From positions 2,052-66,051 of the forward strand of contig JAISUC010000012.1 of assembly GCA_031272275.1 (NCBI GenBank): a stretch of DNA of 64,000 nucleotides. The letters are read 5' to 3'. This document shows positions 5,007-6,587 of this stretch, piece by piece. A program made the position numbers and the translations under genes. How positions within the stretch are numbered: position 1 is the first letter of the stretch; every line of letters begins with the position of its first letter. The stretch is from Actinomycetes bacterium (GTDB lineage: Bacteria > Actinomycetota > Coriobacteriia > WRKU01 > WQUG01). The notes under the pieces are model-generated. The model worked only from the letters and a program-made list of their open reading frames with translations. It ran no database searches and had not been told where the DNA came from.

Positions 5007-6515
5007 TTACCCGTCGGTGCGGGCGGTGACTTCCCGCAGTTTTTGCCAGATGCGGACCATCGCCAGCGTGTCCAGGCGACAATATGCCAGCAGCTGGGCG
5101 CGGATGGCGGCTCGTTCTGCAGGTGGGTATTCGCACAGGCGCGCAAAGGCTTCCATGGCCCCGGTGCCGTCGTGAATACCGTCAAGTCGGGTGTAGTCCA
5201 GCTCGGGATCATCGGGAAACAGGGCCGGCAATACCACCTTGATGGAAGACGAACCGCCCATGGCCTTGTCGTAATACCAGCCGTTTCTGAACGGATCCTC
5301 CAGGTCGTACATATTGTCTGCGATGTCTGTCAACTTGATCGCCAGATCGGGGAAGGCTTTCGCCAGTCCCCTTAACACAGTTTTCTCAAAGGCTGCATGA
5401 TAAGCCACGGTGCAGGCTCCCGGCGCAATGTCGGCACAGAGCCTTTCTGCCACGGCGCGCCTGGGGTCGGTGCCCTCCGTTGCCAGAAACTCGCGGTGTT
5501 CGGGTTCGCGATCGGGGTCATGCACGATATGCAGCGAATACTGCGAGGGAATCTGCTGATAGGGCTTGACGCCGTCAAAGGGCGGAATCGCGGGACCGAA
5601 GGTCTCGAAGTCTAAAAAGTACAGCGGCAGACGCAGTTGACTTAAGAAATCCCGAATCGACTCTTTGTCGATGTGTGGCGGCAAATCATCCAGGTATGAA
5701 TATATCTGCATCAGTTGCTGTGACGTGAACTGTTCCGAATGCGCGCGTGCATCCTCGAACGAGACAATGCCACGGTCAAATAGGGGGTCCAGTTTTGCCG
5801 GACCAATTTTCCGGATGTCGAACACGCAGGGCGCGGGAACATCGCGCCAGCACCACGAACGAAATCCGCATTCATGCGGTTTAAAGCACTGTTCCCCGAT
5901 GCGTCGGTTTGGTTCATCCGGGTCGGCGAGGATGCGTTGCAGAGTCTCTATGCCACGTGATACTGAATCCTGCATCGCCCGGACTTCCTCCGTCCGGTCG
6001 TCCAAAACAAACAGCTCTTGCAGGTCCAGTTCGCCTGAGCGTACGTATTTCTTATTGAGATGCATCAGGCTGACGGTCTCAACTGTCAGCCCACAGTGTT
6101 CCAAAACCCAGCACTGATACGCCATGTCATCCAGATACTCGGGCTTGTATTCCGATGCTGACTTTACCTCGATGATGTCCACGCCATCGGCACGCACGCG
6201 CAAAATGTCGACCATACAAAGATTGCCCCGATAGGCAAACGTGGCCTCGCAAATGGTGGGAACGCCCCGGGCCAGCAATTGTTGGGTCTGCTCGACCATA
6301 CCCGCATAGTTCTCGCGGTCATAGGGCACCTCGACGTAGTCGCCGAAATAACCCATGGCCAGGTCACCGACCTCATTTCCCGTCTGAACGCGCGCCTGAT
6401 CGACGACCGAATCGTCATAACACTCCGGCTTGTTTTTCTGCATCCAGAGCATTTTGGGGCACTGTACCCCCCGGCAGTATTTTGACTTCGACAGACCCAT
6501 ATACCGCACCGCCAT
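5007..6515 (-). CDS. Cas4-like PD-(D/E)XK nuclease with four-Cys cluster plus C-terminal DUF2779-like domain
   Basis: Has the VDIL...DIIEVKS nuclease motif and four-Cys cluster residues (ECYDD and C-x5-C-x5-C in CFKPHECGFRSWC). The LYFLDFETFGPAIPPFDG region resembles DUF2779 proteins. Confidence 0.7.
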   Translation of the reverse strand: MAVRYMGLSKSKYCRGVQCPKMLWMQKNKPECYDDSVVDQARVQTGNEVGDLAMGYFGDYVEVPYDRENYAGMVEQTQQLLARGVPTICEATFAYRGNLCMVDILRVRADGVDIIEVKSASEYKPEYLDDMAYQCWVLEHCGLTVETVSLMHLNKKYVRSGELDLQELFVLDDRTEEVRAMQDSVSRGIETLQRILADPDEPNRRIGEQCFKPHECGFRSWCWRDVPAPCVFDIRKIGPAKLDPLFDRGIVSFEDARAHSEQFTSQQLMQIYSYLDDLPPHIDKESIRDFLSQLRLPLYFLDFETFGPAIPPFDGVKPYQQIPSQYSLHIVHDPDREPEHREFLATEGTDPRRAVAERLCADIAPGACTVAYHAAFEKTVLRGLAKAFPDLAIKLTDIADNMYDLEDPFRNGWYYDKAMGGSSSIKVVLPALFPDDPELDYTRLDGIHDGTGAMEAFARLCEYPPAERAAIRAQLLAYCRLDTLAMVRIWQKLREVTARTDG

Positions 6516-6587
6516 TCCGTAATTGTCGTGATGATCGTAATGTCCGTAATGCCCGTACTGTCCGCTACGCCCGTAACGCCCTGCGTG
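6516..6587. repeat. Eight tandem 9-bp repeats (plus-strand consensus YCCGTAATG; CATTACGGR on the gene strand) immediately upstream of the DUF2779 start codon
   Basis: tccgtaatt gtcgtgatg atcgtaatg tccgtaatg cccgtactg tccgctacg cccgtaacg ccctgcgtg. The array stays in frame with the ORF but contains no canonical start codon before the upstream stop. Confidence 0.7.

Follow-up and report, generated by a model that had tools for sequence, protein, structure and literature searches.

A lineage-restricted array of 9-bp direct repeats upstream of a DUF2779 gene in an uncultured actinomycete

DUF2779 has been placed as family F.17 in the RNase H-like exonuclease clade and co-occurs with DUF83 (PMC3985635), and the protein MMSYN1_0389 was described as a solo-Cas4 plus exonuclease (PMC13621843). 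At the DNA level, the centromere of the Leifsonia xyli plasmid pCXC100 comprises nine unspaced, modestly conserved 9-bp direct repeats, which are bound by ribbon-helix-helix ParB dimers each contacting 18 bp (PMC3074162). Here, a 64,000-nt stretch of contig JAISUC010000012.1 (positions 2,052 to 66,051; hereafter the window) from the metagenome-assembled genome of an uncultured ‘Actinomycetes bacterium’ was analysed, in which an array of 9-bp direct repeats stands upstream of a DUF2779 gene encoded on the minus strand (protein MDR1775437.1). The array is a short tandem repeat limited to one lineage, beside a member of a known protein family, and is quite possibly a lineage-specific tandem duplication that arose by slippage and is now decaying in the 5′ leader of the DUF2779 gene.

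On the minus (gene) strand, seven contiguous, in-register 9-bp direct repeats with the consensus CATTACGGR and zero indels were identified at 6578-6516, i.e. CGTTACGGG (from 6578), CGTAGCGGA (from 6569), CAGTACGGG (from 6560), CATTACGGA (from 6551), CATTACGAT (from 6542), CATCACGAC (from 6533) and AATTACGGA (6524-6516), with an ATG at 6515 following directly. An earlier reading of the letters only (the sequence-only reading) had counted eight tandem units, beginning with CACGCAGGG at 6587-6579; the period-9 array was found where it had been placed, but its first unit was not retained, as a weight matrix built from units 2-8, namely the seven fitting ones, scored these at 7.3-14.1 bits versus -6.25 bits for CACGCAGGG. 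Tandem Repeats Finder (TRF) reported period 9 with 5.4 and 5.1 copies, 72-73% matches and scores of 47 and 43, and period 18 with 3.3 copies and a score of 55, above the period-9 score of 47, the units showing 72-74% matches overall; an 18-bp higher-order alternation is visible in the array, where units end in GGG and then in GGA. The period-9 array exceeds chance: its lag-9 self-matches (40/63 in the 72-nt frame) are the highest in the 64-kb window, it is the window maximum at lags 18 and 27 as well, and its binomial p-value was reached in 0 of 100 first-order Markov simulations of 64 kb, which gave a period-9 maximum of 37. Positions 1, 6 and 7 of the unit (C, C and G) are the best conserved and nearly invariant. 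Every unit differs from every other in at least one base, exact tandem duplication does not go beyond CATTACG twice, and the most similar units are the neighbours CATTACGGA and CATTACGAT. A second tandem occurrence of the motif was not found in the 64 kb, the next best pair scoring 13.6 versus 17.5-26.1 within the array, and ATTACGG is not enriched in the window (8 observed versus 5.1 expected).

Compared with the pCXC100 centromere, the array is strikingly similar in form, namely in its unspaced 9-bp repeats (seven here, nine there), modest conservation, 18-bp functional period or super-period, actinobacterial host and position 5′ of a gene. The two differ in consensus (CATTACGGR here versus AGNTGGAAA there) and in gene context, as no parA/parB or ribbon-helix-helix gene was found near the array, and also in replicon, the array residing in a chromosomal island and not on a plasmid. 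Because the defining partner genes are absent, the array is described as possibly working like the pCXC100 centromere and not as a member of its class.

The array had also been said to abut the start codon. It does touch the first in-frame ATG (6513-6515, minus strand), which is Met1 of a 502-aa open reading frame (ORF) and a possible alternative start, but this ATG lacks a ribosome-binding site and differs from the start conserved in the family. The conserved one is ATG 6500 (Met6), giving a gene of 497 aa at 5007-6500 on the minus strand, and a Shine-Dalgarno-like GGCGGTG (6507-6513, minus strand; 6/7 matches to GGAGGTG) lies 6 nt before it; GGAGG-type sites are present before many other genes of the window. 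Among 122 homologues, the start lies two residues before the LSKS motif in 75 and at most seven residues away in nearly all, homologous starts align with Met6 at the DNA level and have GGAGG-type sites, and a similar 5-residue extension (MVGKH-MGLSKS) occurs in two homologues. The real start codon is thus probably ATG 6500 and not ATG 6515, and the family-wide start at Met6 together with the spacing of GGCGGTG therefore places the array 16-78 nt upstream of the probable start. Public gene calls disagree on this point, with 481 aa (Met22) by JGI, 478 aa (Met25) by NCBI and 497 aa (Met6) by Logan; the JGI and NCBI calls drop the conserved N-terminal helix and the first iron-sulfur (Fe-S) cysteine.

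Upstream of the array, a consensus -10 hexamer, TATAAT, is located at 6589-6594 on the minus strand, one base before CACGCAGGG and, in the orientation of the gene, 73 nt before the first ATG. With only 6 sites in the window on both strands, TATAAT is rare, and that at 6594-6589 is probably the promoter element of the DUF2779 gene; transcription would then start at about 6582, and the array would make up most of the 5′ leader. If instead GACAAT (6527-6522) serves as the -10 element, a leaderless mRNA from ATG 6515 would result. A strict sigma-70 scan returned no full promoter on the minus strand. The discarded unit CACGCAGGG (6587-6579) is part of an TCACGCAG motif directly after the -10-like hexamer, and this 8-mer directly follows the -10-like hexamers of both the DUF2779 gene (TATAAT-TCACGCAG, 6581-6588) and the upstream DUF6847 gene (GATACT-G-TCACGCAG, 7331-7338) on the minus strand. 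Another 80 nt upstream (6657-6672) there is a tandem variant, TCACGCAT-TGACGCAG, and eight exact copies of TCACGCAG were counted in the window; it may be a common initiation or operator motif, or chance. A promoter likeness between the upstream regions of the two genes was rejected, as MAFFT gave no alignment. The spacer upstream of the DUF2779 gene measures 331 bp and opens with GC-rich hairpins after the DUF6847 stop codon, while 37 nt 3′ of the DUF2779 stop codon a hairpin motif resembling repetitive extragenic palindromes (REP-like), GGGACGCACTCCCC, is located at 4957-4970 (plus strand) and likely ends the transcription unit. Since hairpins follow the DUF6847 stop and the REP-like hairpin follows the DUF2779 stop, the DUF2779 gene is probably monocistronic. 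Another upstream hairpin, at 6682-6616, was discarded as a stable structure, being no better than shuffles (z = 0.02).

The distribution of the array was evaluated on 160 homologue-encoding loci (42-61% identity) from genomes and metagenomes. Where at least 80 nt of upstream sequence was available, not one locus displayed a period-9 signal within the 80 nt that precede the start, and periodicities of at least 0.5 upstream of homologues reflected AT-rich low complexity only. For L081, the closest relative, whose protein is 61% identical, the upstream region does not align with that of the DUF2779 gene; a 9-mer common to both, ACAATTACG, did not extend into an alignment and was dismissed as chance. 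The only other assembly with the locus, contig L161 of Logan SRR14710912, is 100% identical over 8818 bp and comes from the same population; it confirms the assembly. Exact-protein look-ups of the 502-aa ORF, P0001 and P0121 gave no match, those with P0122 and the DUF6847 protein retrieved one Logan contig identical to the window and nothing else, and no relatives above 61% identity were detected by genome and metagenome scans. Further copies of the array were absent from plasmid and phage searches as well as from exact flank searches of viral contigs. By these comparisons, the array appears only in this lineage.

Slippage followed by decay fits these observations best because the similarity of neighbouring units, the 18-bp unit and the restriction to one lineage coincide with the lack of a partner gene, an RNA structure and a second site. 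The similarity of CATTACGGA to CATTACGAT and the higher score of period 18 than of period 9 point to a history of local duplication. In such a history, a 9-bp unit would have multiplied through replication slippage, at a later stage in the form of an 18-bp double unit, and the array would since have decayed by point substitutions. It would be untranslated, sitting between TATAAT 6594-6589 and ATG 6500 of a monocistronic gene, and its sole likely effect would be a leader lengthened by ∼63 nt; that it arose by slippage and serves no dedicated function is what we infer. The array resembles bacterial intergenic minisatellite or variable-number tandem repeat (VNTR) loci, e.g. the typing loci of Actinobacteria, in being lineage-specific, arranged head-to-tail and progressively decayed, and in needing no dedicated protein partner, but its unit is short (9 bp) and its copies have already diverged, and VNTR loci are defined by polymorphism, whereas here one population is represented. 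Several observations weigh against slippage and decay. The perfect 9-bp register over seven units with near-invariant positions 1, 6 and 7 also fits a binding motif, and the place of the array, exactly between the -10 box and the start codon, is typical of operators. Third-codon variation in the gene frame (GGG/GGA and GAT/GAC) is synonymous, which hints at coding. No -35 match was found 16-18 nt from TATAAT, and three other promoters of the window, upstream of a riboswitch and of two tRNAs, do have -35 boxes. Moreover, all data on the array stem from one population.

Seven contiguous 9-bp units directly 3′ of TATAAT constitute direct repeats in a promoter region, and could form a cooperative operator, the main rival to slippage, which we consider unlikely. 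In this reading, dimers of the ribbon-helix-helix or a similar kind would occupy a filament-type site at 9-bp intervals from the -10 box to the start codon and repress the nuclease gene by blocking promoter escape or elongation. pCXC100 offers a close formal precedent in an actinobacterium (PMC3074162), the unspaced units combine perfect register and an 18-bp super-period with a conserved C..ACGG core, and ribbon-helix-helix proteins often remain undetectable by sequence. However, the island yielded no gene for a ribbon-helix-helix, ParA or ParB protein, no cognate binder (Rep, ParB, ParR, ParG or omega) was found beside the array, and Pfam scans of flanking genes and small ORFs returned no Rep, ParA or ribbon-helix-helix domain, the last of which can escape detection. 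The motif is in tandem nowhere else in the 64 kb, the array is missing before the starts of the homologues with sufficient upstream sequence, and its consensus is unrelated to that of pCXC100. The resemblance to iterons proposed by the sequence-only reading was not borne out, as the neighbourhood contains neither a gene for replication or partition nor one recognisable as ribbon-helix-helix, and the motif has no second tandem site. Shifted from DNA to RNA, the same repetition could provide a platform, in which a multimeric RNA-binding protein (like TRAP, HutP or CsrA) would recognise the repeated CAUUACGG of an unstructured leader, or translation would be controlled through the repeats as a ribosome standby site, a quite improbable reading. 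Transcription from TATAAT, if that is the promoter, would include the array, the leader is without a stable fold, and units containing GGA or GGG reach the ribosome-binding region; but the lack of structure matches shuffled controls, given that the fold of the leader did not surpass those of shuffles (z = +0.14 and +0.81), the array by itself shows no unusual lack of structure, and start-site accessibility was unchanged by shuffled arrays, 32% of which were at least as open. In addition, Rfam yielded nothing at the gathering threshold, the sole match at E ≤ 10 being a chance long non-coding RNA (E = 8), conservation in relatives is lacking, and no RNA-binding protein is known to use a 9-nt period, which also counts against a platform.

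That the array is coding or a coding relic seems improbable, an estimate that jointly covers an N-terminal (x-Tyr-Gly)n extension initiated at ATA 6593 or ATT 6590 after GGGAGGG 6610-6604, a remnant of it, and what is left of a +1-frame repeat of the collagen-like Gly-x-Thr kind. The unit length is divisible by 3, third-codon differences between units are synonymous, and the gene frame, in which the array reads RYG RSG QYG HYG HYD HHD NYG, is open 35 codons back to a TGA at 6623-6621. As the sequence-only reading rightly noted, this xYG tripeptide frame lacks a canonical start codon, with ATG, GTG and TTG all absent up to the TGA, which is a point against translation. A strong Shine-Dalgarno-like GGGAGGG (6604-6610, minus strand) does precede, by 10-13 nt, in-frame ATA (6593-6591) and ATT (6590-6588), the only candidates that follow it; ATA and ATT starts are very rare. 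Codon usage was intermediate and under the typical coding range: the gene frame scored -0.16 and 0.08 and the +1 frame 0.20, compared with 0.35 ± 0.2 in coding sequence and about -0.4 in sequence read off frame. IMG/VR loci with the pattern TACGG-N4-TACGG-N4-TACG (L162-L281, e.g. L244, L274 and L221) almost always carry it inside long ORFs, mostly as Gly-x-Thr collagen-like repeats in the +1 frame and with perfect 9-bp arrays in few loci, which would favour coding; as a functional clue, these tandem TACGG-N4 patterns of viral contigs were rejected, being mostly coding collagen-like repeats and uninformative for the locus. Against coding, a YG-type N-terminal extension was found in 0/122 homologues, and the starts chosen by three independent gene callers are all located downstream of the repeats. 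The remaining proposal, a slipped-strand phase-variation tract, would make the array a contingency locus in which gain or loss of 9-bp units alters the promoter-to-start geometry and switches the nuclease gene on or off, and we regard it as highly improbable. Like the contingency loci of Neisseria, Haemophilus and restriction-modification genes, the repeat tract lies beside the start of a defence-related gene, here in a defence-type island with a RhuM-like neighbour (PADLOC PDC-S05, 3.9e-117), and it stands between the -10 box and the start codon. In those loci, however, identical units of 1-7 nt recur many times and exert their effect through frameshifts or promoter spacing, whereas the tract here is degenerate (units ∼73% alike, with at most two adjacent near-identical ones), a 9-bp change, as a multiple of 3, preserves the reading frame, and the position downstream of the -10 box leaves the -35/-10 spacing unaffected. 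Efficient slipped-strand switching needs a run of identical units, and no run long enough for mispairing exists, the units being too diverged for other than inefficient slippage now; the two assemblies are identical as well, though from the same population. With its units as diverged as they now are, the array is not a tract for phase variation at high frequency.

The protein encoded downstream is predicted from its motifs and profiles to be an N-terminal Cas4-like PD-(D/E)XK nuclease with a four-Cys cluster, followed by a C-terminal DEDD-type 3′–5′ exonuclease domain, which agrees with the PD-(D/E)XK core, Cas4-like cysteines and DUF2779-like C-terminus recognised by the sequence-only reading. 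The full 126-position Pfam DUF2779 model (PF11074) matched residues 299-424 with 154.7 bits (cut-off 23.3; E 1.8e-45), and 5702 homologues were retrieved. The profile check succeeded for this half only, as Pfam Cas_Cas4 gave 19.6 bits, below its gathering score of 22.7, so that membership is not assigned by Pfam; the PADLOC Cas4 model aligned to residues 13-224 (E 1.8e-6). In 32 homologues (Met6 numbering), D98, E111-V-K113, Q129 and Cys14/205/211/217 are invariant. The fold, the D...ExK and QxxxY motifs and the four Fe-S cysteines (one N-terminal, three C-terminal) correspond to Cas4/DUF83, and the RNase H-like fold with acidic Exo I-III residues corresponds to DEDD (DnaQ-like) 3′–5′ exonucleases. 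No CRISPR adaptation genes (cas1/cas2) were found among the neighbours, i.e. the RhuM-like, DUF6847, AAA+ and ADP-ribosyltransferase genes, and the Cas4-like domain is therefore a solo one. MMSYN1_0389 has the same two-domain architecture with catalytic D/ExK and DEDD residues and likewise no CRISPR genes nearby, but only two Fe-S cysteines, whereas the protein here has all four; members have no characterised function. The two-nuclease architecture is thus already published, and within its large, functionally uncharacterised family the protein is ordinary.

The gene belongs to a low-GC stretch (1834-10650) that follows a tRNA-Ser (1834-1926), the first ∼10.6 kb after which have 50-62% GC (mostly 52-58%) versus 62-66% in the 3 kb profiled beyond. 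This stretch carries the ADP-ribosyltransferase/VG15, RhuM-like, DUF2779, DUF6847/DIP1984 (related to PDB 3kdq) and AAA+ ATPase genes and a Gp49/HTH toxin-antitoxin pair, and is a mobile or defence-type island, in which no integrase and no tRNA-derived direct repeat were found. Its AAA+ ATPase (7589-9769) is a divergent SpoVK/CbbX-like protein. A homologue of it adjoins the DUF2779 gene in 8 of the 160 loci, which are unrelated (L093 1196-2896, L057 479-2221, L157 1778-2485 and L009 1239-1982; also L059, L053, L034 and L025), lying upstream on the same strand in four of the eight (close in L093, L009 and L157), with at most 42% identity over 592 aa; the two may be a recurrent gene pair. The REP-like motif, GGGACG(C/T)ACTCCCC (14-15 nt; stem GGGGA/TCCCC, loop CGYAC), has 13 copies in the window at ≤1 mismatch, at 4957-4970, 7433-7446, 9789-9802, 10749-10762, 14482-14495, 17408-17421, 22404-22417, 25119-25132, 39746-39759, 45268-45281, 50808-50821, 53616-53629 and 62135-62148. 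At ≤3 mismatches, 26 matches were counted versus 11 ± 3 in shuffles, none of 100 of which reached 26. Copies look mostly intergenic, several just 3′ of stop codons and some then followed by GTGTTTTC, and the motif may be a terminator-like or dispersed palindromic element of the genome. Beyond the island, a cobalamin riboswitch (10804-11024, 115 bits) precedes a 530-aa gene starting at ATG 11122 (11122-12714), whose N-terminal region contains a period-9 coding repeat, CCCGTGCGG, at 11215-11260. This TRF row was rejected as a second case of the array, being a PVR-type repeat inside a coding region after a strong ribosome-binding site. At 51870-52167 on the minus strand, Rfam matched 5_ureB_sRNA with 150 bits, antisense within a 573-aa plus-strand ORF (51717-53438).

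The practical outcome of this analysis is a start codon corrected relative to the JGI and NCBI calls. Should the array be no more than a decayed slippage product, it is of little importance and adds one more lineage-specific minisatellite. It is rather unlikely that the array is an operator of the filament type at which a cooperative binder, on DNA or on the leader RNA, silences the solo-Cas4/DEDD double nuclease in a defence island. If that were true, the array would represent a chromosomal, non-partition use of a pCXC100-type 9-bp ribbon-helix-helix array, and so would extend this rare array type beyond plasmid partition; as a cooperative operator, it would be of modest value, offering a handle on the control of a potentially self-toxic two-nuclease protein.

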